Sequence record: SRR31156797_7348
DNA length: 37,449 nucleotides
Strand: one strand, 5' to 3'
Position numbers and translations under genes: made by a program
Shown here: positions 4,458 through 30,785 of the stretch, piece by piece
Position numbering within the stretch: position 1 is the stretch's first letter
Layout of the letters: each line of letters begins with the position of its first letter
The notes under the pieces: model-generated
The model's input: the letters and a program-made list of their open reading frames with translations, nothing else
Told to the model about the DNA's origin: nothing
Database searches by the model: none

Positions 4458-4464
4458 CTTAATC

Positions 4465-8099: not shown

Positions 8100-11000
8100 T
8101 TAATCGATGAATTCCCAGATATTGTTCCAATAAGAAACACGGTCTGCGCCATTTTCATCTTTGTAGCGCACAGAAATCAAATTACGGATGTCATGAACAG
8201 GAATGTCAAGGGTGACAGAATCCGTTACGGGTCTTTGTTGCACGTTGTATGTTCGATAAAAGGTGCCATCCATATAGACGTCAAAGGTACTAAGATTGGA
8301 ATAAAAAATTTGCAGCTGATTGTTATGAACAGCAAGATTGATCAACTCACCAGTGACAGCGCGTGTGCCGGTCTGAAGCGTGAGACTGTCTTCCCCTATC
8401 AAAATGTTTTCCGTCTCTGGCTGATTCCCCGAAACTCTACCGTTGATCGTTACCGGGGTCAGAACATTACCAGCAGCTGCCTGTTCATCCACTCGAGCAG
8501 TCAAGTTCCATTCCATGCGATCCCCCGGTGCGATTGGTCGTTCTAAGTGGATCGTGATACGATCGCCAGAAAGACTAGCCGAGGCTATATTGTCTTGGTA
8601 CACGAGCGCATCGACATTTAAGAACGTCAATAAATTCGGCGAGATATCTAGTGTCACGACAGCATTCTCAATATCGTCTTTCCCAAAATTTCGCGCATCG
8701 TTGCTTTCTACGATCGTCCGCAAGATCAATTGATTGCCGACGGTGATAATCGGATTGCCTTCTTCATCACGATCAAAGCTTTGCGGTACTCGCAACGTAA
8801 TCGATGGGTCAGAAGGTCGAATACTGGTGACTTCAAAGGAGAGCGCTGGTGGGAAACGTTCATCGCCAATGGCATCACGATACCCTAAATAGTCCTCATA
8901 ATCGCTGGCGGACGGATTCGTGCTCCCCAACTGACCATTGGGTTCCGTCGTGGTCGTATCTGGTAAGGTTCCTACGAAATCGTCGTAACGATCATTTGCA
9001 AAATCTTTCGCGTAAAATTCGATATACACATCCTCTTCAGGATCAAGGCGACGTGGTAATTGATACTGCCATGGCACGGAGTTGCCTTGTTCGGCATCAA
9101 GCGTAATGACATATGGGTCACCTGAAGCATCACGGATCAATCCTTGCGCGGTACTCGCATAAATGGCGACTCGCTCTTTTGGCTGGTCGTCTTGCGGAGA
9201 ATGAAAATCCATGATCCCCGAAACTGTTGTCGTCCGTTCATTAAAGACCTGATCCTCTGCCACTTGCAGACCAGTCGGTGGTCGTACATCCACGACGACC
9301 GCATCAGGCAAAGCGACAATACTCTCTTCTGTTGCATGAATGAAAATCGAATCATCAACATCCTCCATCGTTGGGTCTAATCCTCGGTGGGCACGCAGCA
9401 CTTCAAAACGTTGACCTGTCTTGAAAAAGTCGTCCCGCGTCCATGCGATCACACCATTATGCACCTCACCAAAAACATCGACAGTTGATTTGGAGGAAAG
9501 CCATTGCGTTTCAAGCTGGTTGCCTGCTTCGTCCTTCAAAGCAACTTCTACCCAGACCTCATCATCCCAAGCATCGCGAATCGCCCCCGTGTATTCATAC
9601 GGAACGACCGCTTTGGCATAAAAGGTTTTGTCGGCATTGGTCGGGGTCACTAAGTGCTGGATCATTGGAGGATAATTATTGGCAGAAAATCGCGTGTAGG
9701 CATTCCCGCCCCTAAAAGTCGTACTGTTGAACTCATTTGAAAAAGGCTCTCCCGGCTGCGGACTAACGATTTGTGCAAAATTGACATTGCCTAGTTGATA
9801 GCTCAATGGATTCCAGAAATTGTCCGGATCACCATCTAGATTCACTTCGTTGCGTTTTTCCCAAACCGCTAGTCCAACACGATTAGACATAAAGGTACTG
9901 TTACGGTTCGAATTAGAAAAAGCTTGTCCGCCATTCGGACGATTATTTCGGAAGTCATAAAACAGTGGTTCATCAATCACAAAATTGCTTCTGGCAACCG
10001 AACTGATTATTCCATTATTTGCACCTAGGGTCCGACCTTCCATTCGAAAAGTCGCGTCTTTTCCAGCTAAGAACTCGGCTTCTCCGCCTTGCATCCAAAC
10101 AGCAGGTCCACGATGTGCATAGATATGGATTCGACTGTTTTCACCTTGTGCATGAAAAACCGAAGTTCCACTGCCATCAAGAGGAAATTGAATGCCTTGT
10201 CGACCAGCCGTATCTGAGCCATTACTGGCAGTAATGGTGGAATCAGCAGATGGGTCAAATTCTCGTTCTTCATCATTGTACTGATCAAATACGGCAAAAC
10301 CTGTTTCATCAATATAGATGCCATCATCTGCCGCAGTTCTGGTGCCTGCATGGTTAAAGATATTCAACTGACCGGCTGACTCCACATAGAACTCGTTGTT
10401 CCGCCCGTACATCCGCACTGCAGCCGCATTTCCGTGGTATTTGACGATATTCATTTTCCCTTGGTCGGCAAGCACAAAGGTCTGTTCCCCGACTAAGCGA
10501 AACCGCATAACTGAACCATACTCATGATGTTGCCCATCACCAAACATATTAAACTGCGACCCTTCCCCAGTTACCGTCACATTGCCGCCGAGTTTGGTGG
10601 TCGATCCCGCTTTTGAAATTTGATTGACAAAAGCAGTGGTTCCTCTCGGTACACCACTCGTGGGAGCAGGCGCTCTAGAATAGGAGTTTACGACCGCACC
10701 ACCAGAAATAATCGTACGAGAAAACTTATTTTGCGTTTCATCCCGTTGTCCAATCAAGGAAATGATTGCGCCGTTCGCTCCCGCTAAATTCATTTGTGAT
10801 GAGGCATTTAAGACCGTGCCTTCTCCATCGACTTCAAAAATCACCTCGTTAGTACGTCCTTCGAGATTTGCCCAAATTGCTTGCCACTGGACACTATAGA
10901 GATCTACTTTGGAACCCTTATTGACCCGAAACGAGGTTGAGATATTATTGTTGTCTGGTCGGAGCCGAAAAATCGGCTGCGTATTTGAGATCTTGACATC

Positions 11001-12143
11001 CGCCTCATCTGTGATCAAGACACTTTTGACATTAAAGCTGCCAGTATCTGAACTGTTGCCCGCGGCTGGGTTCCTGTGAGCCACCCAATGGAACATTCCG
11101 CGAATCTCGAGATTTCCTTGTTGCAAATAAAGGAAATTATTGCCTGTACTTCCCTCTAGCACACCACTTTTTGCCTCGATATTTTCTATTTTGACCGTCC
11201 AAAAAGCTGAGGCTGCCAACGATTGTTGATAGATCAACGCGTTTAATCCTAGATTGTTTCCCTGAAAATCGATCGTCATATTTTTCAACTCAAAGACCGC
11301 TGGCTGATGATCATGGGTAGTCGTCAGTTCAAAGAAACGTCCAGTAGGATTCGTGCTATAGTTTGGTGTCCCGTTCGTGTTGAAACGCTTCGGTGTGGTT
11401 AAGGTAAAGCCATTCCCATCGATGGACACCGACCGATCCAACGCTGTTAAACGATTGTTGGCCTCATCCGTATAATCAGCGGTAATGTCAGCGAGAAACA
11501 CGATTTCAGAGATCGATGAATCACTAAAAGCAGCCCGCAGCGCTTGATAGTCCGAAACTTCGGCACGCTCTCCTTGCGTCGCCCGTTCTGAAAGCAGTTC
11601 GACTGCCGCTGACTCATTGGTTTCCTGCTGCTGAATGTCAAGCAAGGCTACTTCTTCTACAGCCTTGTCAGCTTCCAATCGCAAGGCTTGTCGTTCCTCG
11701 AGAGAAGGCGGAGCGATTTTTTGCAGCGTCCGATTTCCCCGCTTAAGGACAAATTCGATGGCTTCTTCTTCTCCTAAAGAAACTGGTAATGCCAAGGACA
11801 ACGTTTCTTCCGTAGGCGCCACTTCGATCGCCACACCATAAACACCCTCTTGTTCAGCTGGATGCAAGGTCGCTTCCTCAAGCTCAAGCATTTCAAACAT
11901 TTCTAATGACACCAGCGCTTCATGATTTGCCATCAAGAAAAGCGTCTCGCCAGCGGCTTGTTCCGATTCGATCGTCACTACATATTGTCCTGTTTCTGGG
12001 TCAAAGTGACCGGACACTTCATAAGAATTGCCACCATGGATAGCAAAGACCGCATACAAGACAGAAATAACGATAAAGACCCCTAATGCAGCGGCAGCCA
12101 GTTTGATTTTCGAGACAGTCGCTAGAACAGTAAATGATTTCAT
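8100..12143 (-). CDS. Large exported adhesin-like protein (pectate-lyase-like beta-helix region plus Ig-like C-terminal domains)
   Basis: N-terminal hydrophobic segment; VSDYQALRAAFSDSSISEIVFLADIT...SIDGNGFTL resembles the start of pectate-lyase-like adhesive domains; Gly/Asn-rich beta repeats; no LPxTG. Confidence 0.65.
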   Translation of the reverse strand: MKSFTVLATVSKIKLAAAALGVFIVISVLYAVFAIHGGNSYEVSGHFDPETGQYVVTIESEQAAGETLFLMANHEALVSLEMFEMLELEEATLHPAEQEGVYGVAIEVAPTEETLSLALPVSLGEEEAIEFVLKRGNRTLQKIAPPSLEERQALRLEADKAVEEVALLDIQQQETNESAAVELLSERATQGERAEVSDYQALRAAFSDSSISEIVFLADITADYTDEANNRLTALDRSVSIDGNGFTLTTPKRFNTNGTPNYSTNPTGRFFELTTTHDHQPAVFELKNMTIDFQGNNLGLNALIYQQSLAASAFWTVKIENIEAKSGVLEGSTGNNFLYLQQGNLEIRGMFHWVAHRNPAAGNSSDTGSFNVKSVLITDEADVKISNTQPIFRLRPDNNNISTSFRVNKGSKVDLYSVQWQAIWANLEGRTNEVIFEVDGEGTVLNASSQMNLAGANGAIISLIGQRDETQNKFSRTIISGGAVVNSYSRAPAPTSGVPRGTTAFVNQISKAGSTTKLGGNVTVTGEGSQFNMFGDGQHHEYGSVMRFRLVGEQTFVLADQGKMNIVKYHGNAAAVRMYGRNNEFYVESAGQLNIFNHAGTRTAADDGIYIDETGFAVFDQYNDEEREFDPSADSTITASNGSDTAGRQGIQFPLDGSGTSVFHAQGENSRIHIYAHRGPAVWMQGGEAEFLAGKDATFRMEGRTLGANNGIISSVARSNFVIDEPLFYDFRNNRPNGGQAFSNSNRNSTFMSNRVGLAVWEKRNEVNLDGDPDNFWNPLSYQLGNVNFAQIVSPQPGEPFSNEFNSTTFRGGNAYTRFSANNYPPMIQHLVTPTNADKTFYAKAVVPYEYTGAIRDAWDDEVWVEVALKDEAGNQLETQWLSSKSTVDVFGEVHNGVIAWTRDDFFKTGQRFEVLRAHRGLDPTMEDVDDSIFIHATEESIVALPDAVVVDVRPPTGLQVAEDQVFNERTTTVSGIMDFHSPQDDQPKERVAIYASTAQGLIRDASGDPYVITLDAEQGNSVPWQYQLPRRLDPEEDVYIEFYAKDFANDRYDDFVGTLPDTTTTEPNGQLGSTNPSASDYEDYLGYRDAIGDERFPPALSFEVTSIRPSDPSITLRVPQSFDRDEEGNPIITVGNQLILRTIVESNDARNFGKDDIENAVVTLDISPNLLTFLNVDALVYQDNIASASLSGDRITIHLERPIAPGDRMEWNLTARVDEQAAAGNVLTPVTINGRVSGNQPETENILIGEDSLTLQTGTRAVTGELINLAVHNNQLQIFYSNLSTFDVYMDGTFYRTYNVQQRPVTDSVTLDIPVHDIRNLISVRYKDENGADRVSYWNNIWEFID

Positions 12144-12164
12144 CTAGGCACCCCTTTCCTTTGA

Positions 12165-12791
12165 TTACTCCAACAGTTCTTGTCCCGTTTCAAAGCTTGA
12201 TAGATAATACAGCTTGATAACGACACTTGCCGAAAACGCATCTGCTCCTGACGTATTGCTTCCTTGCCGATATTCGACTGATTCAACTTTTAAAAAGCGA
12301 TTCAGGTTTTCCATCCGATCAATAAAACGCACGATTCCTTCATTCGTCTCACTCAGGAGGTCAAAGCCGATCCTTGTGACCCGAAATTGCGTAGCCAAAG
12401 GATTGTCACCAGTCTGATCTGCCATTTGTTCTGGTGTAGGGTAAAGCATCTCCTCATTAAAGGTCGATTGCAAAATCGTGATCGGCAATTCCGTTTCAAG
12501 GGCAGCGAGATCGGTAAAATAAGACTCGATCGCCATGCCATTGGGAATGATCGGCACCTCATTGACCGTCTCTGAGGAAAGAAGGTCTGGTTCCCCTTGT
12601 AGGTAAACCAGCTGTTCCTGAATGTCGCGGATCTCTGCTTCGATCCCAGCTAATTCCTGAGCCAATTCGATCCCTTCGGCACGTTTGGGATTCAGTAAAA
12701 ATAGCCAGAAAATAAGTACGGAGGTAGCGAGAACTAGCGCAATTACCGCGGAGATGATGATGTGTTTTTTGGAGAAAAAGACTTTAGTCAT
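12165..12791 (-). CDS. pilO: PilO-like type IV pilus alignment protein
   Basis: Single N-terminal TM, coiled coil, FIDRMENLNRFLKVESV motif; follows pilM-pilN; start moved to ATG 12791 (RBS GAGGTG). Confidence 0.72.
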   Translation of the reverse strand: MTKVFFSKKHIIISAVIALVLATSVLIFWLFLLNPKRAEGIELAQELAGIEAEIRDIQEQLVYLQGEPDLLSSETVNEVPIIPNGMAIESYFTDLAALETELPITILQSTFNEEMLYPTPEQMADQTGDNPLATQFRVTRIGFDLLSETNEGIVRFIDRMENLNRFLKVESVEYRQGSNTSGADAFSASVVIKLYYLSSFETGQELLE

Positions 12792-13407
12792 CCGCTTCCA
12801 CCTCGCTTTCCTCTTCGCTCTCTTCACTGATCACTTGTGGTGCAGCGATTCGTGAGAGGTAGACAGTGATGCGCCCATCTTGCGGCGTTGAACTATGAGA
12901 AAAAGATTGATAAGTCACATGATGTACCCAATCGATTGCTTCAAAAGCCGATTTAAGGCGAATCAGACTTTCATAAACATCCCCTTGGACTGCCATGCTC
13001 ACCAAAGGAAACAATGGTGTACCGTCTTGGGCTGTTTCGGACATTGTCCCCTCGCCATTTAGCAGCAAATTATACGAATTGATGGTCACATCGATTCCTG
13101 ATGCCACTTCCTCAAAGGTTTCCATAATAGGCGCTGTGAAATATTTCTCTTGCTTTTGCAAGGCAATGAATTCTTGCAGGTCTTGAGATTTTGACGCTAG
13201 CATCTCTTCTAACTGGCGCTGGAAAACGATGCGCTCTGCTTGACTAGACATGATATTGCTTTGATTATTGGTCACCAGCCTTTGATAATACCAAAAGCCT
13301 AACCCACAAACCCCAACGACTACTAACGAAAGGAGAAGCGAAACCGAAAGAATGACTTCAAACGCCCGATTACGGATAAATTTATTAGGCAATAGATTGA
13401 TGTTCAT
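12784..13407 (-). CDS. pilN: PilN type IV pilus alignment protein
   Basis: Canonical N-terminal INLLP motif followed by TM and coiled coil. Confidence 0.85.
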   Translation of the reverse strand: MNINLLPNKFIRNRAFEVILSVSLLLSLVVVGVCGLGFWYYQRLVTNNQSNIMSSQAERIVFQRQLEEMLASKSQDLQEFIALQKQEKYFTAPIMETFEEVASGIDVTINSYNLLLNGEGTMSETAQDGTPLFPLVSMAVQGDVYESLIRLKSAFEAIDWVHHVTYQSFSHSSTPQDGRITVYLSRIAAPQVISEESEEESEVEADD

Positions 13408-13409
13408 GG

Positions 13410-14456
13410 TTACACCTCTTTCGTCGCTAATCCCGCAGCCAAGATATAGCGGTCGGGAATTTTTTTCTTGCTGGTTTCACTTACTTTTGCGGAAATCGTT
13501 TTGACCGGCAAAGAAGACAACTCATGAAATATTTCTTGGACTTCTTTCCGCAGCATTGGATGACCGCCGACTAAGTAGATTTTTTTCAATTCACAATCAG
13601 GCGAGATTTCCTGATAATAGTAAGCAATCACCGAATTCAAGGTTTCTGCTAACCCTTCCAGTGCTTGGATCTCCGCACTTTCCCTAAAGTTCACTTGCAC
13701 AGATTGGGCTTTTTCAATATATTTCCAGTTGGCTTGATTATAATCTTCATACTGCAGGTAAGTCGGCACCAATTCTTCAAAAAAGGTGATATTGGCGATG
13801 CCAGCATCTAACTCGACCAGCACGAAATTTTCACTCCAGTTGATCTGTCGCTGAAACATACGACTATACGCCAGAAAACTGCAATCGACGCCCATCAACT
13901 GATGGCCGCCTTTTTTCAATGTGTCGCCGAGTTGAATCAAAATCGGCTCTGATGTGACCACGACTGGCACATTGCCATTGATGGTAAACCGATTCCGCTG
14001 GATGACCACAGCTTGCGGTTCTGCTTTCTCTTCCTTCTTGCTGGCTTTTTTCTTTTGTGCTTTTGGTACTTTTTCCTTGTTGCCTTTACCTAGGATCAGT
14101 AGATCAAAAATCGGGTTTTCAAAAGGCAAAGAGATGGACTCCCCCAATTCAAAATACAAGTACTCGCGAATCTCTTTTTCCGAGTTCATCTTACCGATTG
14201 GGATCTGTTTGATCAGCAGACGAGAATTTAGTGCCGTGATCACCACACTCATCGTGCGTAATCCCAAGCGTTTGGCAATCTCATTGAAGGCGGCTTCAAG
14301 ACTATCAGGATTGCGCAGCTTATCATCTTTAAAAATCGTACCATTCACAACCAGCTCGCCGTATTTGAGACGGTCACCTTTTTTGGTACAGTAACGGATG
14401 CAGTTTTTTTGGATGTCGATCCCTACTAAGCGGGGAACTGTTTTTTTGCCAAACAT
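13410..14456 (-). CDS. pilM: PilM actin-like pilus assembly protein
   Basis: VGIDI near N-terminus, ISLPFENPIFD, KIYLVGG, C-terminal AAGLATKEV; start likely ATG 14456. Confidence 0.85.
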   Translation of the reverse strand: MFGKKTVPRLVGIDIQKNCIRYCTKKGDRLKYGELVVNGTIFKDDKLRNPDSLEAAFNEIAKRLGLRTMSVVITALNSRLLIKQIPIGKMNSEKEIREYLYFELGESISLPFENPIFDLLILGKGNKEKVPKAQKKKASKKEEKAEPQAVVIQRNRFTINGNVPVVVTSEPILIQLGDTLKKGGHQLMGVDCSFLAYSRMFQRQINWSENFVLVELDAGIANITFFEELVPTYLQYEDYNQANWKYIEKAQSVQVNFRESAEIQALEGLAETLNSVIAYYYQEISPDCELKKIYLVGGHPMLRKEVQEIFHELSSLPVKTISAKVSETSKKKIPDRYILAAGLATKEV

Positions 14457-14564
14457 ACGAGGACCTGCTTTCTTCTTGTTGGTTTTATATGAAGGAACCA
14501 ACGTTATTTCTATGTACAACGCTTGCTTAGCAAATCAAGCAAACGCCAAGGTCAGCAACCCAAT

Positions 14565-15317
14565 TCAAAGGAACCAGCCGCTGCCAAGATAAACCATGCC
14601 GGTAGCAATGGCGATAAAGGGACCAAAAGCAATGTAGCGACTTTTGACTTTGCCCCGTACCATTTGGATCACGTAAAAGATCACTGCCAAGCAAGAAGCG
14701 ACAAATAAAACCGTCAAGACTTGCACTGGGCCGATATACACACCTAAGACGGCAAATAATTTGATATCGCCGCCACCCATGCCTTTTTTACTGAGCTCCG
14801 CTAAGAGATACAATGGCAAGAAGCCAGCAAAGAAGCCAACGAGCCAATACCACCAAAATTCATTTTGCGGTTGGATCAACCGTAAACCGATCCCTCCGGC
14901 GAAAAAAGGGGCTAACACTTTATTGGGGATCAGCTGATAGAAGATGTCGCTGGCAGAAATAATGGCTAATAAGGCTAATAAACACCAAGCGGCAATCACT
15001 TCAGCAGTGCCCCAAAACAGCAAGGTCGTACCCGTAAATAGCATGCCGATCAACACTTCATAAAGAAAAGCAATCAGCGGGATCTTTTTTTGACACTTAC
15101 GGCACTTGCCTTTTAAAATAAGGTATGATAAAACTGGAATGAGGTCCCTTGCACCTAATGTCTGTTGGCAGTCATCACAGTGCGAGCGAGTCAGCAGGGA
15201 TTCCTTTTTGGGAACCCGCCAACCAACCACTAGGAAAAAAGAACCTAGACACATTCCTATGATGAAAAGATAACCAATGATTAGGCCCATTGGGATCTGT
15301 TGCAAAATTTCGTTCAT
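14565..15317 (-). CDS. pilD: Prepilin peptidase/N-methyltransferase (A24A)
   Basis: GSFF..V..RVP, Zn motifs CDDC and CRKC, catalytic Asp in SASD and GMGGGD, IAFGPFI. Confidence 0.93.
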   Translation of the reverse strand: MNEILQQIPMGLIIGYLFIIGMCLGSFFLVVGWRVPKKESLLTRSHCDDCQQTLGARDLIPVLSYLILKGKCRKCQKKIPLIAFLYEVLIGMLFTGTTLLFWGTAEVIAAWCLLALLAIISASDIFYQLIPNKVLAPFFAGGIGLRLIQPQNEFWWYWLVGFFAGFLPLYLLAELSKKGMGGGDIKLFAVLGVYIGPVQVLTVLFVASCLAVIFYVIQMVRGKVKSRYIAFGPFIAIATGMVYLGSGWFL

Positions 15318-15354
15318 AAAAAACTCCTTTTTTCCTGGGGGGTTGAGTTGCCGT

Positions 15355-15390
15355 ACACCTTAGGTCAGGTTAGTGACTTGAGGTGTTTTT
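15355..15390. terminator. Stem-loop between major pilin and pilD
   Basis: ACACCTTAGGTCA-N6-TGACTTGAGGTGT with T-tract on the + strand. Confidence 0.45.
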
Positions 15391-15413
15391 AGTTTCCTAA
15401 AAAAATTAATATC

Positions 15414-15938
15414 TTATAACGGTGGAGGAGCTGGTTGAGGATCTCCAAATACATACTCTCGAGTTAAACCATTGATTTGATTTTGTGTTAACCCAGTACC
15501 GAGAACACCTATCTCGTTGCTATTTTCTTGTCCAGCCTTTAAAACGCCAGCTGGAGCATACATTGTTAAAGCACCTGTTGATCCGATATAAAACATAACA
15601 TTATCAGTATCTTCCCATGATGTACTGTTTAGTAATCCATCATCCATTACATCTTCTAAGGTAAAATCTAAAACCGCGTTAGCTGTCCCGTCATTCAAGT
15701 TGCTATTAGTTGATTGATAGAGCACTGCTGCTGAGAAAGCTTGTTGAATATCAGAAACAACTGCATCTTCTCGAGCATTTTGAATCACGTTCCCAATCGC
15801 AATAACCCCGATCCCAGCGATGATCGCTAAGATAACGACTACTGCCAGCAACTCGACCAAGGAGAGGCCGCGCTCGTCTTTCAATAATTTATTCAATCGA
15901 TTGTCTGTTGTTTCTTCTGCTAAAATTGCATCAATCAT
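15414..15938 (-). CDS. pilA: Type IV major pilin (probable)
   Basis: Class III signal ...KDERG|LSLVELLAVVVILAIIAGI with E5; strong RBS AGGAGGAG before ATG 15938; about 150-aa mature protein. Confidence 0.85.
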   Translation of the reverse strand: MIDAILAEETTDNRLNKLLKDERGLSLVELLAVVVILAIIAGIGVIAIGNVIQNAREDAVVSDIQQAFSAAVLYQSTNSNLNDGTANAVLDFTLEDVMDDGLLNSTSWEDTDNVMFYIGSTGALTMYAPAGVLKAGQENSNEIGVLGTGLTQNQINGLTREYVFGDPQPAPPPL

Positions 15939-17225: not shown

Positions 17226-17228
17226 CGG

Positions 17229-22941: not shown

Positions 22942-22984
22942 CTGCGCCCCTCCTTTGCAACTTCCGCAAGAACAGCCAGCCCTT

Positions 22985-23680
22985 TCAATAGTCTACTACC
23001 CAATGCAGATACGTTTCTGTCAAAAATGCGCCCGTTTGTTTATCGAAGACCTGAATAATAAGTCCGAGCCCGAGCTGACGACGGTCGTAACTGTCTTCTC
23101 GCAGTCCATGTCTGGGGTCTTCGCGAATGGAGACCTTGACCAAATAGTTGGTGGTTTCTTCATTCTCCGACAAGTACGTTCCCATATAGAGGCGATTTTC
23201 TTCCGAATTTACCAAGGGCTGCGGCAAATGAGCGCCAGAATGATCGTATACCACCTTGCGAATAAATCGGCCCCGATTGAGATCATCTACAGCAATCGGG
23301 ATTTCTTCATACATCGGTTGCCCTTGCGCATTGTATTGAATCCCTGAATTATCGAGGACCAAATGGTGTCGGCGAACTTCTGAGGGATCATCTGGATCGA
23401 CCATCATCCAAGAAGGTCTAGCCGTAATGATCCCGATATTCAAATCCGCCAAGTCTTGAGTCTGTGCCCGGTATATTAGCCATTCCTTGACATCATCTCG
23501 TGCTGCGATGGCCTCTTCCATTCGGGTATTGTAGCTAAGGATCAGGTTGTTTTGGATGATCAGCATGGCGATCATGACCATTGCGATCCCGAGAATGACG
23601 ATCGCTCCAAGGATCTCAACAAGGCTGAACCCTGATTCATCAAGTACTTTATGTGCTTGTCTGCCTTTTTTCAGTTTCAT
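22985..23680 (-). CDS. Type IV minor pilin
   Basis: LDESG|FSLVEILGAIVILGI class III signal with E5. Confidence 0.88.
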   Translation of the reverse strand: MKLKKGRQAHKVLDESGFSLVEILGAIVILGIAMVMIAMLIIQNNLILSYNTRMEEAIAARDDVKEWLIYRAQTQDLADLNIGIITARPSWMMVDPDDPSEVRRHHLVLDNSGIQYNAQGQPMYEEIPIAVDDLNRGRFIRKVVYDHSGAHLPQPLVNSEENRLYMGTYLSENEETTNYLVKVSIREDPRHGLREDSYDRRQLGLGLIIQVFDKQTGAFLTETYLHWVVDY

Positions 23681-23705
23681 CACCTGCTTTTTGCCTAGCC
23701 CCCGA

Positions 23706-24035
23706 TCAAGGAGAATCCTTTTCTTCTAGCTGGTTGATACTTGTATCTGGGTCAAGAAAAGATAATTTGCTAAGGGTAAACCCCCAGTGAATCAGTTTAT
23801 TGAAATCAGGGTAGTCAGCTAATGGAATACTTTTTTTGGCTTTGCGTGTGATGCGGATTCGTTCCCTGATATAATGATACCTTTCTTCTTCAACCAGTCG
23901 CTGAATCTCGGCGATCTCTTTTTCAACATCAGGATCTTCGACATTCGCTTGCATATATTGTTGGTAGAAATAATCCAAATACTTCCCGTATTGAAGAAAA
24001 TAATGGTATTCAATTTCTTCAATGACCATTTTCAC
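23706..24035 (-). CDS. Small hypothetical cytoplasmic protein in the pilus cluster
   Basis: RBS AAGGAG before GTG; 109-aa co-oriented ORF. Confidence 0.7.
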   Translation of the reverse strand: MKMVIEEIEYHYFLQYGKYLDYFYQQYMQANVEDPDVEKEIAEIQRLVEEERYHYIRERIRITRKAKKSIPLADYPDFNKLIHWGFTLSKLSFLDPDTSINQLEEKDSP

Positions 24036-24067
24036 GTGAATCTCTCCTTGACTTATTTTCTAGCAAC

Positions 24068-25501
24068 TTATTGAAGTGAGTGCAAATGCCGATAGATGAT
24101 CGCAGTGGCACTCTCTGGCCGATCATTGTCTAACTGAAAGACCTCCCTTAATGATTGTCGATCAGAAGCCTGAATGACTTCGACTTTCGGTAAAAGTTTG
24201 TAGGCAAGATGGCTATCGTCTGCGACACTTGTATCGATCATCACTTGTTCGATCAGTGAACGGGTGACGCCATAACCGTCTTCACTTTGATAGGATCGGT
24301 CCAAAGGGAAACTATAATAAAACCAGCCATCATCGGGATTATAGATCCAAGTATTTCGATCGATCTGACGGTAATCACTCAAAGAGCCGAATTCGATCAT
24401 GATGGCTTCTGAGTCGATCTGGGCGGGACTTTCAGAGACAAAGCTGCTTAGCGTTTTCACCGTTTGGGTCGGATACAAGCCAGCAGCATCGGGAAACGCA
24501 CTGATCATCTCTGGCAAGTGAAAGGCACTGCCTAACCCAGATTCTGTCGTCGTGTAATCAAATGACGACTGGTCAATCGTTCCCTGTTCTCCGAGATACG
24601 TGAATCCCGTAGGTTCCTCACTGGTGGAAAAGGGGCTGGCTAGCTGCGACTCCGCCCAGTTTCGAACAAAATAACGATACCCTTCAAGATAATAACTATA
24701 GGTCAAGTTGGTTGCTTCAAAGGTCCACTCAGCAACCGGATCAGCAGGATTGAGCAGCAGCAGTTCCCCACTCATTTTCTGCATGACCGGTCGTTGGTTC
24801 CGTCGAAAGGAATAGCTGAAGTGAGCTTCGACAAGGACCGGTTCTTGCCAGAGATCAGGCGGACCATCGATCAAGTCTGATGACGGTTGCTCCTCCATTT
24901 CTTCGTTGCCTTCGGTGCGATCGTAGAAGTTCTCAGGATTTCCCTGTCCTTCAGCGTCTAATTCCCCCAATAGCTCCTGCATCTCTTCACTATCGAAGGC
25001 ATCCAAGGCAGGCGTGGGTGCCAATTCTTCGATCGTCTCATCGCTGATCCAAACCATCACTTGACCATCAAGAGCATTTCCAATGAGTTCTGGGATCTGC
25101 TGGGTCACGTTCTGATACCCTCTTGCTAAAATTTCGTTTTCATCATAGCGAGACAGTACTGGTAATAAGTCTGGCGCATCACTCGCATCTGCCGCCTGCT
25201 CAAAAGCTGCTTCCTCACTGTCTGGCGCGATATAGCGTAGCACTTCTTCAAAACTTGCTCGGACAAAGACTGGCACTTCACTAGCGTTCATTACCCGAAC
25301 GGATCGTTGGATCGTCGTCCCTGTAAGGGTCATTCGTTCCTGCCATTCTTCCAAAATCTCGATTTTTTCGAACACTTCATTTTCATCCGCTAATCGACGA
25401 ATATGAATAGACTGATTATTCTGCCAAATCAAGATGCTAAGCAACAAAAGAAAGAAAAGCAGACCCGCGATACTATTTCTTAACACTATTTTTTTTTGCA
25501 C
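24068..25501 (-). CDS. Membrane-anchored BsaA/TasA-like (SipW-class) exported protein
   Basis: N-terminal TM; IEILEEW, SVRVMNASEVPVFVRASFEEVL, WIYNPDDGWFYY and KVEVIQAS resemble SipW-dependent BsaA-type proteins; start GTG 25501 or TTG 25522. Confidence 0.55.
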   Translation of the reverse strand: MQKKIVLRNSIAGLLFFLLLLSILIWQNNQSIHIRRLADENEVFEKIEILEEWQERMTLTGTTIQRSVRVMNASEVPVFVRASFEEVLRYIAPDSEEAAFEQAADASDAPDLLPVLSRYDENEILARGYQNVTQQIPELIGNALDGQVMVWISDETIEELAPTPALDAFDSEEMQELLGELDAEGQGNPENFYDRTEGNEEMEEQPSSDLIDGPPDLWQEPVLVEAHFSYSFRRNQRPVMQKMSGELLLLNPADPVAEWTFEATNLTYSYYLEGYRYFVRNWAESQLASPFSTSEEPTGFTYLGEQGTIDQSSFDYTTTESGLGSAFHLPEMISAFPDAAGLYPTQTVKTLSSFVSESPAQIDSEAIMIEFGSLSDYRQIDRNTWIYNPDDGWFYYSFPLDRSYQSEDGYGVTRSLIEQVMIDTSVADDSHLAYKLLPKVEVIQASDRQSLREVFQLDNDRPESATAIIYRHLHSLQ

Positions 25502-25535
25502 CCTTGTTTCCTCTTTTCTCAAGTAATGACGGCTC

Positions 25536-26579
25536 TCAAGTAAAGAGATAAATGCCTAATAGAATGAATAAGGCGATCAATGATACACAGAAGATGATGG
25601 ATAATATCAAGTTTTGATCAATAAAACGAAACACATCTGCTACATGGTTGATACTCATTGAGACTTCTCCAACGAAACGGTCTGCTTCGATGGCTTCTTC
25701 CCCAAATGCCTGTCCATCACCAATGACGGATAAATGATAGCCCTGCTCTTCGTCAGCCTCGATCGATAGTACTCGGCGAGCAATATAGCCGGTTCCTGAG
25801 CCATTTGTAAAGACCGCGAGCCCGTTTGGCTGTACTTGAGTGAAGGCTTGTTCTCTTAAAATGATCAAATCTTGTGTGCGTAATGCGGAGCTGTCAAGAT
25901 TCGCCATCCCATTATCTGATAAACGCACCACCCGATGATTAAAAACTGTCATTCCGTTTTGATCAGTCACATATAAGCCGATAAACGTAAATAGGACAGT
26001 CATGCTACAAACCAAGAAAATCAGATAGATGATTTTCAGTACGAGATTGCCAGATTTCTTTTTGGCTGTTGGTTTCTTCGTCGCGGCTTTGCCTTTTTGC
26101 GGGGGACGTCGTTTCTGGGAAACTTCCGCTGGTTTTTTGCCGTGCTTGCGGGTCCCTTTTGATTTGGCATTAGGATGACTTGATTTTTTGATTTTCCCCT
26201 GCTCGTTGTGCTGACTTGGACGTGCTTGCTGCGGTGGACGCTTTTTCTTTTTGCGTGGTGCTTCACTGGTCGTACTGGCAGCTGCTCTTTCTTTTTGCTT
26301 GCTAGGATGCTGCTTTTCGGTCGGTAATTTGGGGCGATTCGCTGTACCAGCCGCTTTTTTTCGTTTCTTTTTCACAGGCGCCTGTCCTGTCGGTTCTTTT
26401 TGGGTCGGCTTTTTTGGTCGTTTCTTGCCACTAGAAGGGCTGGCTGGCTTGCCTTGCGCCTGAAACTTTTCGATTCGGGGATTTCTCGGTGTATCCTCTG
26501 ATTGGTCTCGTTTTTTTTCACGTTTGGCAGGCTGTGGCGGACGTTTTTTTCTTCTAGGTGCTTGCGACTGATTACTCAT
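25536..26579 (-). CDS. Degenerate SipW-like (S26B) signal-peptidase homologue with long Lys/Arg/Pro-rich N-terminal tail
   Basis: TM, then VRLSDNGM...DLIILR...AVF...IARRVLSI...IGDG...FVGEV...VFRFI, then TM; aligns by eye with SipW VLSGSM...THRIV...KGD...VGKV. Confidence 0.6.
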   Translation of the reverse strand: MSNQSQAPRRKKRPPQPAKREKKRDQSEDTPRNPRIEKFQAQGKPASPSSGKKRPKKPTQKEPTGQAPVKKKRKKAAGTANRPKLPTEKQHPSKQKERAAASTTSEAPRKKKKRPPQQARPSQHNEQGKIKKSSHPNAKSKGTRKHGKKPAEVSQKRRPPQKGKAATKKPTAKKKSGNLVLKIIYLIFLVCSMTVLFTFIGLYVTDQNGMTVFNHRVVRLSDNGMANLDSSALRTQDLIILREQAFTQVQPNGLAVFTNGSGTGYIARRVLSIEADEEQGYHLSVIGDGQAFGEEAIEADRFVGEVSMSINHVADVFRFIDQNLILSIIFCVSLIALFILLGIYLFT

Positions 26580-27951
26580 TGGCATCTACCTCGCTGCCCG
26601 CTCGTTCCATCCCTCTTAATTGGTTTGCATAAGTATTGGCATTGGCATTTTCCTGCAAGCGATCCTTGACGGTCCGAATGGACGCTGGCAAATTCCCTGA
26701 ACCTCGACGATTTGCCGCGCTTCTTTGCAAGTCTTCAAACAACGAACGGGTCGTCTCCGCTTCTTCCTTGCGGGCTGCTTCGATTGCTTGTGCACGTGTG
26801 CGTTCAATCTCTTCCAAAATCTCTTCGGTCGGCTCATTATCATAAATGGTTAGATCATAGGCCTCGATCAACGCATTCAGCTTTTGGTCATAATGGATGT
26901 CCGTAGCATAGCGCCCTGTCAACCACGCAGTTGCTTCCCGATAAGTTGGGGCATTTTCTTTCCAAACGGGGGCATAAAAGCGCGGGTTGCCTGTGATGCC
27001 TCCTCTTAGTAAGCGAGCGTAATCTTCGATGGATTCACGGTAACTTGGGTATTTACGGAAATTGGAAGAGATCGTATACCACGCACCACTTCCATCATCT
27101 TCTTGCGTATTGAAGGTCACTTTTTGCCCACGAAAGCTGCCCTTGATGCCGAAAAGATTATGGTTTGGCGGACTGGATAAGGCGCTGTTTCCTGAGCCGG
27201 TCTCCAAGATGGCTTGTGCGATCATCACTGAGGCATAAAGATCATTGTTATAGGCAACATCTTGCGCGTCAGAACCAATCTCATTGATGAATTGTTGTGT
27301 CGTTAGATTACGTGAAACCGAAAACTGAAAGTTGCTTTCCCGCTCTTCTTCATCGATCGGCGATTCGGGTTCTTCAGTGATTGGATCGGGCTCTTTTTCT
27401 TTGTCCTGATTGGTTTGATTCCCATTTGATTGGTTGTTTCCGCTATTGTTGCTGCTGTTGGTATCGTTGGTTTCTTGCTCATTCGTTTCAGGTCCAGCAG
27501 GCTGATTCGGCTGTTGATCGCCTTCTGAAGGATCTGGCGTCGACGGAACATTTTCGGCCTCTTGGTCTTCTGTTTCATCCGAGCCGCTCTCCATCTCTTC
27601 CTCGTCTGTCTGTCCCTCGTCTGCCGGTCGTTCCACATCATTTACGACTTGGACTTCCGTTCCTTTTTCGGCCTGCTCCGCTTCTTCTGGAAGGGTTTCT
27701 TTTGTTTGTTCTGGAGGAGTATCAAGTTGCTCCGTTATCCTGTCAGCTCCTTCGTAAGAGACCGGTCGGAGGGCATCCGTTATCGATTGCCCACGACTTT
27801 CTCGTTGTGCATCGATGGTTTCCATATAAGTAGATGGTTCTACACCTAAGATCGATCGAACCATGGCTTCAGAAATCGTTTGATTATTGATGATTCCGAT
27901 AAATGCTCCGATCGCTAACAGACTTTTTACGTTTCTTCTGGGCTTTTTCAT
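26572..27951 (-). CDS. Secreted GH73 glucosaminidase/muramidase (FlgJ-like) with acidic low-complexity linker
   Basis: LYASVMIAQAILETGSG, NLFGIKG, FRKYPSY, LTGRYATDIHY; ATG 27951 after GGAGGAGG gives a signal-peptide-like N-terminus. Confidence 0.88.
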   Translation of the reverse strand: MKKPRRNVKSLLAIGAFIGIINNQTISEAMVRSILGVEPSTYMETIDAQRESRGQSITDALRPVSYEGADRITEQLDTPPEQTKETLPEEAEQAEKGTEVQVVNDVERPADEGQTDEEEMESGSDETEDQEAENVPSTPDPSEGDQQPNQPAGPETNEQETNDTNSSNNSGNNQSNGNQTNQDKEKEPDPITEEPESPIDEEERESNFQFSVSRNLTTQQFINEIGSDAQDVAYNNDLYASVMIAQAILETGSGNSALSSPPNHNLFGIKGSFRGQKVTFNTQEDDGSGAWYTISSNFRKYPSYRESIEDYARLLRGGITGNPRFYAPVWKENAPTYREATAWLTGRYATDIHYDQKLNALIEAYDLTIYDNEPTEEILEEIERTRAQAIEAARKEEAETTRSLFEDLQRSAANRRGSGNLPASIRTVKDRLQENANANTYANQLRGMERAGSEVDANE

Positions 27952-28258
27952 CTTCTTGATCCTCCTCCTTGGGGCTGTTCTTGCTGGTGCCTTTTTTTGG
28001 TCGTTCATGGTCTTTGCTTTCATTTTTCTCAAGCTGCACAAGCAGCAATTGATAATGAAAGGCATTGTTCCGCAAATACATCGTAAAACCTAGCAAAAGA
28101 GCGAGTAAAAACAAGTGACTGATAGTGACATATTCTCGAAAGGCAGAGAGATAAAAATAGGCGGTCAGCTGCAAAAATACCGCTAATGGGATCAAAGAAG
28201 CAATAAAGTAGATGCGGTATAAGAATAAGAATCGTTGTTTTTGCTTTTGGGTTCTCAT
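27884..28258 (-). CDS. Small two-TM membrane protein with charged tail
   Basis: RBS AGGAG; two hydrophobic segments; start overlaps the upstream stop. Confidence 0.7.
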   Translation of the reverse strand: MRTQKQKQRFLFLYRIYFIASLIPLAVFLQLTAYFYLSAFREYVTISHLFLLALLLGFTMYLRNNAFHYQLLLVQLEKNESKDHERPKKGTSKNSPKEEDQEDEKAQKKRKKSVSDRSIYRNHQ

Positions 28259-29562
28259 AGACTGCTCCTAACGTCTGTATTGCCTTCGATCAATGCTTTT
28301 TTTTCTAATAGATAGCTTTCGCTTTGGAGAAGATCAAAGTAAGCGGCTTTTCGTAAAAGATTGTCATAGTCCATCTTCATAATGCGTGCGTAAGGTTTTC
28401 TAAACCATGGTCGCTCATACAATTTGACCCGTGATTCAATCACGCTGCATTCATAAAAAACCAAGCTGATATCTTTAGCAGAAAGGTTGTTGTCGACCAC
28501 TTGCTGCACTTGCCCTCTCTCATAGGTCAACTCTTTTTCGTTCAAGGTCATCTTTTCGATCTTTTGTACGAGATTGTCATTGATGCGCCAAACCTGTTCC
28601 AGGTATTTGGCTTTTTGAAAAAGATAGGTATATTCTCGTAAGCTGATCTTCAATTGCGTATGCCAGTTCTCGTCTTCTTCATCGGTCAAGCTGTTTAAAT
28701 AGTGGATACTATTTTTGATCAAAGAGGCTTCCAAGTTTTCGATGTAGATCTCAAGCTTTTGATTGGCCAAGCGCAAGCGCTCTTTGCTTGCTCGTTCTCG
28801 TTTCGCCTCTTCCTCCAACGCTAATTCATTGGCGTTGACTTTGGACAATTGCTTGGCTTTTTTTGACTGTTTTTTTTTGCTGCTTTTTTTGCGAACTTTC
28901 TTTTTGAACTTTGGTGGCTCATCCGCACTGACCTTTTGGAACTCGAGCGTGTCTTCCAGTTCTTTTTTCATTGCATTGGTTTTGCCCTGACGTTTTTCTT
29001 CATGGACTTGCGCTTTCGGGCGACTCACAAACGTGACATTTTGTTCGTCGATCACGCTTTGTACGATTTTTACCAGTTGCTCTTTAAAGTCGTTCGCATC
29101 ACTTACACCAGCGGGGGCTTGCTGCTGCAAGCTGGCATCCAACTGAATCGTAAAGGGAAACTCTTCTTCTGTGTAAGCGATTGGTACAAACTCTAAAAAC
29201 AAATTGCTTTTCTCATCGGACACATGATTGATGCCGATTTGCGTCCACACAAACTGAGGAAATTGCTGTTCCAAGGGAATGCGTAATTTTGAGTAATCAA
29301 TTTTTTTCCGTAAGATCTCCATCTCGATATGATGGGTGAAGGCTTCGATGGAATAAAATTGCTCAAAGTAATGCGTCACTTGTTTGCGGATCGAGGATTT
29401 GAGCGGCCACTTTTTTTGATAGAGGTTGTCGCAGGCAGTGATTACTGATGGAAGTGCCTCTTGTTTATAAAATAATTCCTCAAGATTTGGACTCAAGGTT
29501 GGATAGATGGCAATTTTTAAAATATCATTCGTCACATTCGTCCCAATAACCAACATGCTCAT
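28255..29562 (-). CDS. Hypothetical cytoplasmic protein with Lys-rich segment and coiled coil
   Basis: 435-aa co-oriented ORF; KKKVRKKSSKKKQSKK segment; start uncertain. Confidence 0.75.
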   Translation of the reverse strand: MSMLVIGTNVTNDILKIAIYPTLSPNLEELFYKQEALPSVITACDNLYQKKWPLKSSIRKQVTHYFEQFYSIEAFTHHIEMEILRKKIDYSKLRIPLEQQFPQFVWTQIGINHVSDEKSNLFLEFVPIAYTEEEFPFTIQLDASLQQQAPAGVSDANDFKEQLVKIVQSVIDEQNVTFVSRPKAQVHEEKRQGKTNAMKKELEDTLEFQKVSADEPPKFKKKVRKKSSKKKQSKKAKQLSKVNANELALEEEAKRERASKERLRLANQKLEIYIENLEASLIKNSIHYLNSLTDEEDENWHTQLKISLREYTYLFQKAKYLEQVWRINDNLVQKIEKMTLNEKELTYERGQVQQVVDNNLSAKDISLVFYECSVIESRVKLYERPWFRKPYARIMKMDYDNLLRKAAYFDLLQSESYLLEKKALIEGNTDVRSSL

Positions 29563-29699
29563 AAGAAATCAAGTCGTAGTTGTTGCCCGTGATTTCTTAA
29601 ACAGCACATATGGTCCTAGTGGGTTTCCCTCCTTTGTCGTGTCGCTCTCAGAAATTATTCAGCAGACCTTTTCGTCTATTCCGACTTATAACCTTCGTT

Positions 29700-30785
29700 T
29701 TAGTCTGGCAGATTCAATACTTTGCTATGCTGGATCAACTGCTCAAACAACCCTTTCGACTCATGATGAAACGCCGTAAGTCGTTCTTGGTATTGCTTGA
29801 TCTCTTGACGGATTTTCATCACTTCCATCGATGCTTCTGAAATGATTTTGTGAGCTTCATTTTCCGCCACTTGACGTCTTCTGTCGGCTTCCAGTTCTGC
29901 TTCAGCAGCGGTTTCCCGTGCTTTTTCTTTTGCTTCGATCAAAATCGTCGCCAGCTCGTCCTTCATTTGTTCGACCTTAGCCAGTTCACGTTCCAAGTCA
30001 CGCTGTAAAACATTCTTATCTGCCAGTTGTTCGACTCTTGAACGTTCAAGATCCCGATATTTCGCTTCCGCTTCTTGCAAGCGCAAGTTCAACTGTTGAT
30101 TTTCATTTTCAAGCGAAGTGATCCGCCGCATGCTTTCGACTTCTTTTAATTTGTAGTTTTCGATTATCGCCGCTTTTTCTTCTAAATGAATCGCTTTTTC
30201 TTCAAAAGCTTGGACTTGTTTGCTTTTCTCTTCTAATTCTTTTAGTAATTCATCTTCTCTTTGACGCAATTGTTCGAGCTCTTCTTCTACTTCGATCAAT
30301 TCGTCTTCTTGACTCGTCAACTGCTCAATTTCTTGCTCATAATTGGTTTTGAGGGCTTCTTGTTGACGTTCTGCTTCTTTTAACTGCTGCTGCAACTCGT
30401 TGTAGCGCATTTGCAGCTGCTTGTTTTCATAAATGATACTTTCTTGTTGCGTCGCTTGCGAAGCCATCCGATTGATGGATTCTTGTTTGTTTTCCAATTG
30501 CTTGGTCAAATGTTCGACGGTCTTGGTCAGTTGTGAAACGGTATTTTCTAATGCCAGCAGCTCTTCTTGGGCATCATCGTCATACTCGTCTTCCTCGTAT
30601 TCTTCATCCCCGTACTCATCGTCCTCGTACTCGTCGTCATCATATTCTTCATCGTCATACTCATCGTCATCATATTCTTCATCATCGTACTCGTCTTCGT
30701 CGTACTCTTCTTCATCATATTCCTCGTCGTAGACATGAACGCCTTCGTAAGTTTCTTCATCTTTCTTTTTGCGAAATAATGCCAT
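29700..30785 (-). CDS. Coiled-coil protein with acidic Tyr repeat and DivIVA-like C-terminal region; first gene of the pilus cluster
   Basis: RBS AGGAGG; long heptad pattern; LATILIEAKEKARETAAEAELEA...EAHKIISEA resembles the DivIVA C-terminal coil. Confidence 0.75.
   Translation of the reverse strand: MALFRKKKDEETYEGVHVYDEEYDEEEYDEDEYDDEEYDDDEYDDEEYDDDEYEDDEYGDEEYEEDEYDDDAQEELLALENTVSQLTKTVEHLTKQLENKQESINRMASQATQQESIIYENKQLQMRYNELQQQLKEAERQQEALKTNYEQEIEQLTSQEDELIEVEEELEQLRQREDELLKELEEKSKQVQAFEEKAIHLEEKAAIIENYKLKEVESMRRITSLENENQQLNLRLQEAEAKYRDLERSRVEQLADKNVLQRDLERELAKVEQMKDELATILIEAKEKARETAAEAELEADRRRQVAENEAHKIISEASMEVMKIRQEIKQYQERLTAFHHESKGLFEQLIQHSKVLNLPD
30573..30732 (-). repeat. 15-bp coding tandem repeat encoding [D/E]4-Y pentapeptides
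   Basis: VYDEEY-DEEEY-DEDEY-DDEEY-DDDEY-DDEEY-DDDEY-EDDEY-GDEEY-EEDEY-DDD. Confidence 0.9.

Follow-up and report, generated by a model that had tools for sequence, protein, structure and literature searches.

Enterococci are textbook examples of bacteria with sortase-built pili, and to our knowledge the competence pseudopilus is the only type IV filament known in them. Both the sortase-assembled pili (Ebp; Enterococcus faecium PilA/PilB) and the ComG pseudopilus figure in Imam 2011, whose available parts list E. faecium and Enterococcus faecalis with com operons only. Among monoderm bacteria, type IVa pili (T4aP) are known from Streptococcus sanguinis, a member of the Lactobacillales in which a single locus encodes PilM/N/O, PilT and several minor pilins, according to the accessible sections of Pelicic 2019. 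The components of that system are PilE1/PilE2, PilF, PilG, PilD, PilMNO, PilT and the modular minor pilins PilB and PilC. Type IV pili (T4P) of the monoderms Clostridium perfringens and Clostridium difficile likewise have PilB, PilC, PilD, PilM/N/O and PilT, and the parts of that literature at hand connect them with gliding, adherence and a possible role in secretion. Here we analyse sequence record SRR31156797_7348, a stretch of 37,449 nucleotides (nt) called the window throughout, in which a pilus cluster occupies positions 8100-30785 of the minus strand and is read from 30785 to 8100. It differs from the Com system, which is without PilT and PilM/N/O. We judge it likely that the cluster encodes a complete monoderm T4aP machine and that an Enterococcus of the casseliflavus/entomosocium group gained it as a chromosomal island of 23.6 kb.

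A putative type IVa pilus machine

The cluster consists of 19 co-oriented, close-packed open reading frames (ORFs), all on the minus strand and at the coordinates given in the original prediction, with spacings between neighbours that run from overlaps to a gap of 137 nt. The predicted tally of eight core genes, three further genes with class III signals and eight accessory genes is right, as are the content and order of the core, pilB-pilT-pilC-pilin-pilD-pilM-pilN-pilO, with motif and architecture as the sole basis for naming PilN. Eight canonical machine genes on one strand and in canonical order are far beyond chance. As set out in the sections of Pelicic 2019 available to us, a monoderm T4aP comprises pilins with their peptidase, a platform, an extension ATPase, PilM/N/O and PilT, and we regard the machine as complete because each of these is present and intact, PilN as a putative member. 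The predicted ORF starts hold overall, except that the pilin more likely begins at ATG 15938 than at TTG 16007 and that the start of g04 is uncertain.

The two motor proteins are encoded side by side. PilB, the putative extension ATPase (530 amino acids (aa); 18631..20223), carries a T2SSE domain (440.9 bits) preceded by an N-terminal MshEN domain (60.7 bits), and its translation contains a Walker A motif and the CxxC...CxxC motif. This is the domain structure of an extension ATPase, although the matches to TIGR02538, the PilB model (538.9 bits), and to TIGR02533 stay under their equivalog cut-offs. PilT, the putative retraction ATPase (436 aa; 17229..18539), scores 457.1 bits on TIGR01420 against a cut-off of 319.1. 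PilT proteins in the PDB match it at E 2e-100 to 1e-91, and with its best solved relative, Aquifex PilT (2ewv, E 2.1e-100), the Walker A, Walker B and His box motifs align. PilT also has a basic N-terminal extension of ~90 aa. Such long Lys/Arg/Pro-rich extensions, probably disordered, occur in PilT (residues 1-90), PilB (1-40) and the accessory protein g05 (1-180); that of PilT is retained in two of the genomes compared (G008 and G010) and is shorter or missing in more distant loci. A PilB-PilT fusion suggested by open frames of 985-990 aa in G105 and G099 was rejected, as a stop lies between the genes in G105.

PilC (403 aa; 16014..17225) has the two T2SSF stretches (PF00482, 192.7 bits) of a platform protein. 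PilD (250 aa; 14565..15317) matches both parts of a prepilin peptidase/N-methyltransferase, A24_N_bact (PF06750, 97 bits) and Peptidase_A24 (PF01478, 70.6 bits), and has CxxC pairs and GGGDIK in its translation. The three assembly proteins are more divergent. PilM, a predicted actin-like cytoplasmic protein (~350 aa; 13410..14519), stays under the Pfam cut-off as a single sequence (23.6 bits), and an 11-sequence profile finds Myxococcus xanthus PilM (3jc8) at E 3.4e-16 and Pseudomonas aeruginosa PilM at 5e-6. PilN (207 aa; 12784..13407) and PilO (~208 aa; 12165..12827) are predicted bitopic proteins, neither with a Pfam family. PilN has an invariant N-terminal MN(I/V)NLLP, then a transmembrane (TM) segment and a coiled coil; its NLLP aligns on the INLLP of M. 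xanthus PilN, in which TM segment and coiled coil come in the same order, but the match itself is non-significant (E 0.29-0.49). We take INLLP to be the PilM-binding motif of PilN; a literature text search for the motif returned 0 papers. For the PilO profile the top PDB match is M. xanthus PilO (3jc8, E 6.9e-4, profile positions 17-110), which is weak but specific.

As originally predicted, the cluster is not a Com pseudopilus. PilB reaches 254.6 bits on the ComGA model NF041000, under its cut-off of 300, and the nearest genome compared (G001, which has 63% of the window's sampled 31-mers in common) encodes a separate ComGA with 319.1 bits, over this equivalog cut-off; DNA uptake would therefore have its own machine. 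Statements on ComGA, flagella and GGDEF proteins derive from G001 and not from the window's own genome. These observations bear on the possibility that the pilus serves DNA uptake in natural transformation. According to the parts of Pelicic 2019 available, retractile T4aP do this in many diderms with PilT retraction as the motor, but in monoderms the task falls to the Com pilus. Besides the separate ComGA, Pfam and NCBIfam searches find no DNA-binding or competence gene in the island, and its adhesin-type modules point to surfaces and not to DNA. We therefore hold a role in transformation to be very improbable.

Major and minor pilins

The major pilin (174 aa; 15414..15938) matches N_methyl (PF07963, 25.5 bits) and TIGR02532 (22.3 bits), both over cut-off. 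Its most likely start, ATG 15938, is preceded by AGGAGG; the alternative is the listed TTG 16007. From ATG 15938 the prepilin has a 24-aa leader, cleaved after Gly to leave a mature protein of 150 aa starting LSLVE. The motif KDERG/LSLVE (the slash marks the cleavage site) is present in 18/18 homologues, with the Gly-1, Glu+5 and hydrophobic alpha1N of a class III signal. The best PDB match, and so the best solved relative of the protein, is S. sanguinis PilE1 (8pfb, E 5.7e-5); query residue 26 falls on its chain residue 2. By the diderm definition, a classical type IVa pilin has a leader of fewer than ~10 residues and Phe at +1. Here Leu occupies +1 and the leader, taking ATG 15938 as the start, has 24 aa; therefore it is the machine, and not the pilin, that we file as type IVa. 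Long leaders do occur in the pilins of monoderm T4aP.

The pilin head is a strain-variable cassette. Compared with G001, residues 1-54 of the pilin are identical and identity overall is 65%; synonymous divergence (dS) is 0.79, versus 0-0.11 in neighbouring genes. In one isolate-like run, the stretch 15384-15705, covering the 3' two thirds of the gene, is replaced by 275 unrelated letters. The high dS, the low identity and the replaced head together point to an imported allele, and variability of the head is expected of an exposed filament subunit. Contigs from ant metagenomes break at both edges of 15384-15705. The rest of the island is 95-99% alike.

The three additional ORFs with class III signals, g08 to g10, are also borne out: their motifs are kept in all homologues examined, 16 to 18 per gene. 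g08 (232 aa; 22985..23683; G/FSLVE, kept in 17/17 homologues) scores 18.8 bits on N_methyl, under cut-off, and g09 (228 aa; 22255..22941; G/ITLVE, likewise conserved) scores 24.4 bits. Homologues of g09 fall into only 13 clusters at E<=1e-10 and come from E. casseliflavus, E. faecalis, Enterococcus sp. BWB1-3, an uncultured Enterococcus, Ca. E. clewellii and Vagococcus coleopterorum. The E. casseliflavus-labelled homologue is a truncated 163-aa record, and the E. faecalis label stands on one record. Public annotation of these relatives is generic ('type II secretion system protein', 'PulJ/GspJ family', 'FimT family' or 'hypothetical').

The third minor pilin, g10 (692 aa; 20220..22298; G/FALIY), is modular and is identified by its motif and an AlphaFold2 (AF2) model. 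It is without Glu5, as are all 17 homologues, although four of these have an N-terminal stretch that stops short of position 5 or an ORF that begins inside the gene. In the AF2 model (pLDDT 79.5, pTM 0.71) a helix (17-88) leads into a pilin-like sheet (115-205) and a beta-rich region (260-690). Residues 248-666 are modelled as a right-handed beta-helix matching adhesins (VIA-align), including the Lactobacillus reuteri SRRP (5nxk, Z 14.9) and EtpA (Z 13.7), and also resembling tailspikes and lyases. Foldseek gave no match of the g10 model in the PDB at E<=0.001; the Atlas lead was to PilX_N-like clusters (0.93). With a separately folded beta-helix behind its class III signal and pilin fold, g10 fits the concept of the modular type IV pilin, and on the strength of the model it is probably a tip-located minor pilin and adhesin.

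Host and chromosomal context

The host is an Enterococcus, as originally predicted, and its sequence places it in the casseliflavus/entomosocium group. The closest named record is Enterococcus entomosocium IIL-Cl05, with a 99% identical PilT, and the flanks are syntenic; PilT of Ca. Enterococcus testudinis is 83% identical, and the remaining PilT rows show 45-56% identity among the best 80 of 534 confirmed matches in a species-representative collection. E. entomosocium is sister to E. casseliflavus, and several 'E. casseliflavus' records belong to it, according to the portion of the E. entomosocium preprint available. In G001 the flanking genes match those of the window (ubiE 97% and GntR 98% identical), and the cluster proteins are 96-100% identical, the pilin (65%) excepted.

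The cluster lies in an insertion of 23.6 kb (7952..31588), delimited by alignment with two genomes of the same genus that are without it. Alignment of the ubiE side stops at window position 7951 in G002 and at 7948 in G004, that of the GntR side begins at 31589, and the two flanks lie ~45 bp apart in these genomes; 7952-31588 is therefore an insertion. Its GC content is 44-50%, compared with 40-42% in the flanks. Family searches found no integrase among the window products, and no direct repeats were found at the island ends. Among PLSDB plasmids, all 82 PilT records are below 60% identity and none is at or above it.

Upstream of the first gene lies a non-coding stretch of ~800 bp (30786..31588) with no ORF of at least 60 aa. 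The island promoter is presumably in this stretch. The adjacent GntR gene has its terminator there too (31355-31387, minus strand), a hairpin of 14 pairs with a T run. A 14-nt inverted repeat (31179-31208), 93% complementary and with 2 nt between its arms, is a possible operator. Rfam searches at E<=1 gave no match in the island, and the sole weak match in the window, to a snoRNA model, lies outside it. A hairpin 3' of the pilin gene was rejected as a terminator (z -1.83, no U run).

The genes of the flanks (35122-36462, minus strand, and 123-7036) are ordinary chromosomal ones, among them those for a PcsB-like M23 peptidoglycan hydrolase that has a coiled coil, for an oligopeptide-binding protein, for DUF1576 and DUF1093 proteins and for a transporter pair of the ABC/FtsX type. 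Elsewhere in G001 (C45:153926-155893, C46 and C63) FlhA (836.7 bits) and three GGDEF proteins are encoded, so the lineage may combine flagella, cyclic di-GMP (c-di-GMP) signalling and a type IV pilus; FlhA had no match in G002 and G008. We note that 17 public runs labelled as ant metagenome or metatranscriptome carry 43-54% of the locus's sampled words, and that the three examined contain several strain variants of the locus. An entomosocium-like Enterococcus with the island seems to be common in that ant material.

Phylogenetic distribution and selection

The locus is not unique to this strain, as PilT-bearing loci occur in other Enterococcaceae and Lactobacillales. Full-length PilT was found in 2/8 genomes of the genus, with two further matches to ComGA-like ORFs of ~320 aa. 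A PilT homologue is present in 13/134 Enterococcaceae species genomes and in 44/401 sampled Lactobacillales species genomes, spanning 6/9 families. We examined 22 loci in detail, 13 from Enterococcaceae and 9 from other families. Loci were classed as window-type if they encode g08-g10, PilB, T, C, A, D, M, N and O plus a downstream anchored protein. This holds for 18 loci: that of the window, those of 12 Enterococcaceae genomes and 5 from two other families. Five loci (G084, G143, G166, G273 and G472) have only PilB, T, C, (A), D and (M) in common with it. The 12-gene block g08-g19 is syntenic in 11/13 PilT-positive Enterococcaceae genomes, one of the two exceptions, G099, being cut by a contig end, and is also found in the 5 loci of other Lactobacillales families. 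The accessory genes have no match in 78 non-enterococcal PilT loci. One contig of another Lactobacillales family (G371:C4) carries two complete window-type loci ~27 kb apart (loci L136-L139), with PilT genes at 59699-60748 and 86963-88159 and downstream anchored proteins of 945 and 1113 aa.

A PilT phylogeny of 51 rows, among the checks named with the original prediction, places the 18 window-type rows in one clade with support of 100/99. Its sister comprises Bacillaceae/Caryophanaceae and a second Lactobacillales type. The Streptococcus-like row lies far off on a long branch, and the Enterococcaceae are non-monophyletic within the window clade.

Ratios of non-synonymous to synonymous divergence (dN/dS) between the window and G001 are 0.03-0.14 for PilB, PilT, PilC, PilD, PilM, g10 and g19; between the window and G008 they are 0.026-0.033 for PilB, PilT and PilC. 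Selection on the cluster genes is purifying, with hypervariability confined to the pilin head. These data speak to the possibility that the island is cryptic and silent, with no filaments formed in this host. Its horizontal acquisition with a GC content above that of the flanks would fit such a state, as would the lack of a regulator in the island by Pfam and NCBIfam searches, the lack of expression evidence and the failure of literature searches to find such enterococcal pili reported. With respect to expression, 18 RNA-labelled public runs hold 43-58% of the locus's sampled words, but in the four examined the locus lies on contigs of 16-41.6 kb, and the longest run records are 85-142 kb. Contigs of such length mean that there is DNA in the libraries, and the runs therefore allow no inference on transcription. 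Silence is in turn hard to reconcile with 19 ORFs intact in both the window and G001, with low dN/dS, with a turnover of pilin alleles that implies selection on the product and with the same architecture being retained across several genera and families. We consider a silent island unlikely; the T4aP island is real and intact and, by its sequence, probably functional.

Anchored and accessory proteins

The large protein encoded 3' of pilO, g19 (1347 aa; 8100..12143), matches the pectate-lyase-like adhesive domain PF20585 (45.2 bits). It is laid out as an N-terminal membrane anchor, a beta-helix, a stalk of beta-sandwich domains and a C-terminal domain of ~80 aa (~8103-8345). In the AF2 model of residues 148-1347 (pLDDT 81.2) a long beta-helix is followed by beta-sandwich domains, and Foldseek matches tandem-immunoglobulin adhesin extenders. 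In 16/18 window-type loci, the window included, the gene behind pilO encodes a protein of 745-1359 aa with the same type of anchor and the same C-terminal domain. The bodies in between are unrelated between loci, and one has MucBP. Neither Pfam nor NCBIfam detects a sortase or LPXTG anchor among the 19 products, and there is no such motif at the C-terminus of g19.

The C-terminal domain is without a Pfam family; one homologue has a sub-threshold TcaA_3rd_4th match. The family is very small: out of 1.84 billion proteins, a profile of the domain picks up only 31 representatives at E<=1e-3 (18 at 1e-10), and in nearly all of them the domain lies at the very C-terminus. A word-based search using the region returned only 3 near-identical proteins. 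It could be defined as a T4P-locus-associated domain. Complex prediction of the domain with g10 and g09 gave a score of 0.00, which speaks neither for nor against binding.

Seven genes precede the minor pilins. The first, g01 (361 aa; 29700..30785), encodes a predicted cytoplasmic protein with an acidic-repeat N-terminus and a DivIVA-like coiled coil (PF05103, 30.3 bits, cut-off 28; dN/dS 0.03 against G001), and its homologues lie upstream of the pilus genes in 6/13 Enterococcaceae loci. g02 (435 aa; 28255..29562) is a conserved, presumably cytoplasmic protein with no Pfam or NCBIfam family, and a 6-sequence profile found nothing in the PDB (best E 0.042). It is syntenic in 6/13 Enterococcaceae loci and has weak matches in 3/5 window-type loci of other Lactobacillales families (G184, G172 and G277). 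g03 (124 aa; 27884..28258) is a small membrane protein by its hydrophobic segments. It is syntenic with g04 in 6/13 Enterococcaceae loci and in 3/5 window-type loci of the other families. g04 (at most 497 aa; 26572..28065) is a putative membrane-anchored peptidoglycan hydrolase with an N-acetylglucosaminidase domain (PF01832, 110.9 bits); its matches to FlgJ-type and autolysin models are under cut-off, and its listed ORF overlaps the preceding one by 182 nt, leaving the start uncertain. The gene lies directly upstream of the pilus genes in 10/18 window-type loci, and the upstream module g01-g04 accompanies the same number, 10/18.

The remaining three genes are nearly private to the window's lineage. 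g05 (349 aa; 25536..26585) has no family and combines a Lys/Pro-rich basic N-terminus, a TM segment, a small outer domain and a C-terminal TM segment; its only counterparts are in G001, in G010 (partial) and in one of the two G371 loci (G371b; weak). g06 (484 aa; 24068..25522) is a predicted N-terminally anchored or secreted protein with no family over threshold and no meaningful match of its sequence in the PDB; on the BsaA/TasA-like model TIGR04090 it reaches 22.2 bits, under the cut-off of 60. g07 (109 aa; 23706..24035) has no Pfam or NCBIfam family and is found only in G001.

The products g06 and g19 raise the possibility that the machine is mainly an exporter resembling type II secretion, in which a short dynamic pilus would push folded proteins such as these through the wall. 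A precedent appears in the available part of the Kivimaki/Melville preprint, where a second T4P set of C. perfringens is tied to pilin-dependent secretion of BsaC and linked to BsaA/TasA-like matrix proteins. The sub-threshold TIGR04090 match of g06 would fit this precedent, as would the large extracytoplasmic protein always encoded 3' of pilO. Moreover, the GspE model gives PilB a higher score (575.2 bits) than the PilB model does, both under cut-off. Against export, the g06 match is under threshold and g05-g07 are missing from most window-type loci; the hypervariable pilin head suggests an exposed filament; and a PilT over its family cut-off together with PilM/N/O are hallmarks of retractile T4aP. 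As to type II secretion itself, the GspE (cut-off 630.25), GspF (312.2 bits, cut-off 424) and GspG (17.7 bits, cut-off 88.85) models are all matched below cut-off, and Pfam and NCBIfam find no secretin family among the 19 products. A machine devoted mainly to export is in our view decidedly unlikely, and we interpret the locus as encoding a retractile pilus.

Proposed function

We infer retraction, and any function of the system, from the genes, and the steps outlined here follow established T4aP biology. The major prepilin and three minor prepilins would be inserted in the membrane, where PilD would cleave the four after the conserved Gly and methylate the new N-terminus. The minor pilins g08-g10 would prime assembly and remain at the tip, with g10, lacking Glu5 and bearing the beta-helix module, staying there as an adhesin. 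Hexameric PilB would power the PilC platform in adding pilins, while cytoplasmic PilM would grip the INLLP tail of PilN, and PilN-PilO would form the membrane alignment complex. PilT would then take the place of PilB and remove pilins, so that the filament retracts and pulls; the outcome would be adhesion and surface movement of the twitching type. More speculatively, the DivIVA-like protein, the two proteins without assigned roles (g02 and g03) and the anchored glucosaminidase may open and organise the thick wall at the assembly site, and g19 may act as an adhesin that can be exchanged, its conserved C-terminal domain providing the link to the system.

Several observations count against a complete and working T4aP. 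PilB and PilC are under NCBIfam equivalog cut-offs; only motif and architecture speak for PilN, whose match stands at E 0.29-0.49; and the identification of PilO depends on a match at E 6.9e-4. The leader of the pilin, by our own start call, is at 24 aa longer than in classical type IVa pilins. Family, Rfam and hairpin searches identified no promoter or regulator in the island, and the RNA-labelled runs, with DNA in their libraries, give no evidence of expression. The glucosaminidase module is missing from 8/18 window-type loci, and the suggested roles of the accessory genes are based on synteny alone.

A broader reading, which we put forward tentatively and with rather low confidence, is that the island belongs to an unrecognised, horizontally moving lineage of monoderm T4aP in Enterococcaceae and other Lactobacillales families. 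This lineage would have its own wall-breaching module. Its giant adhesin, with a body of beta-helix or MucBP type, would be exchangeable and would be tied to the pilus, or to the site where the pilus exits, by the rare C-terminal domain of ~80 aa. A flagellated insect-gut Enterococcus would gain from it an antigenically variable pilin together with adhesion and twitching powered by retraction. How the filament passes through a thick cell wall is a question left open in the parts of Pelicic 2019 available; the linked glucosaminidase/DivIVA-like module and the g19 family are candidates for this passage, and a dedicated wall-breaching module, if real, would answer how T4P cross thick peptidoglycan. 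If the pilus is a real organelle, the genus gains a force-generating apparatus for adhesion and motility. The labels of homologues extend to Ca. E. clewellii, Enterococcus sp. BWB1-3, V. coleopterorum, E. faecalis and E. casseliflavus. A culturable host of the casseliflavus group would provide a new monoderm model that is open to genetics, in addition to S. sanguinis and clostridia. The patchy, horizontally shaped distribution and the variable pilin head may be relevant to insect gut colonisation and possibly to phage adsorption.

Comparison with known systems

Literature searches on enterococci and Lactobacillales gave no description of enterococcal type IV pili, in agreement with the original prediction; the supplements of Denise 2019 and Schwartzman 2024 lay outside the search and may list T4aP. 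The E. entomosocium preprint contains 0 occurrences of pilus, pili or pilin, and Schwartzman 2024 contains no pilus, pilin or type IV, its two word-start occurrences of 'pili' being the genus Pilibacter.

Among described systems, the T4aP of S. sanguinis is alike in the features listed at the outset, and its PilB is, like g10, a minor pilin with an adhesin module in the part of that work available. The grafted module differs, being a beta-helix in g10 and vWA in S. sanguinis, as does the size of PilO, ~208 aa in the window versus 56.6 kDa in S. sanguinis (Pelicic 2019, in the sections available). The streptococcal system belongs to another lineage: the Streptococcus-like locus in G166 matches the window only in PilB, PilT, PilC and part of PilD (tblastn, 29-54%), and neither the g19 family nor the glucosaminidase module was found in it. 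The clostridial systems belong to another class of Bacillota. The T4P of C. difficile are linked to a c-di-GMP riboswitch, whereas the island is without a riboswitch or other Rfam element.

The nearest PilT proteins outside the window clade (51-58% identity) are those of the pilB-pilT-pilC loci of Bacillaceae/Caryophanaceae (Lentibacillus, Cytobacillus and Jeotgalibacillus) and of the second Lactobacillales type (G084, G143, G273 and G472). These loci have the order pilB-pilT-pilC-pilin-pilD in common with the window; unlike it, they yield no counterparts of g08-g10, PilN, PilO and g19, for which tblastn matches were found in 0/78 non-enterococcal loci at E<=1e-5.

The large adhesin-like proteins have looser parallels. 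The diderm tip adhesins PilY1/PilC are large non-pilin proteins that the pilus locus specifies; their bodies vary and their C-terminal part is conserved. The likeness of g19 to them is by analogy only, with no sequence or fold match obtained: unlike PilY1, g19 is N-terminally anchored, is encoded behind pilO and not with the minor pilins, and has a conserved beta-sandwich of ~80 aa in place of a propeller. For g10 the parallels are beta-helix or beta-solenoid proteins of adhesion or DNA binding that are tied to T4P. Of these, Thermus thermophilus ComZ appeared only as a non-significant Foldseek row. The beta-helix of g10 matches C-terminal domains of the Caldicellulosiruptor tapirins (6n2b, Z 12.7, root-mean-square deviation 3.0 over 191 residues; 6n2c, Z 11.4), which are encoded beside a T4P locus according to the portion of the tapirin literature available. 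Identity in these structural alignments is 10-11%, the beta-helix fold is common among adhesins, lyases and tailspikes, and tapirins, unlike g10 with its class III signal, are not pilins. Set beside these systems, the machine itself is of a known kind; what is new is the genus that hosts it and the set of accessories specific to the clade.

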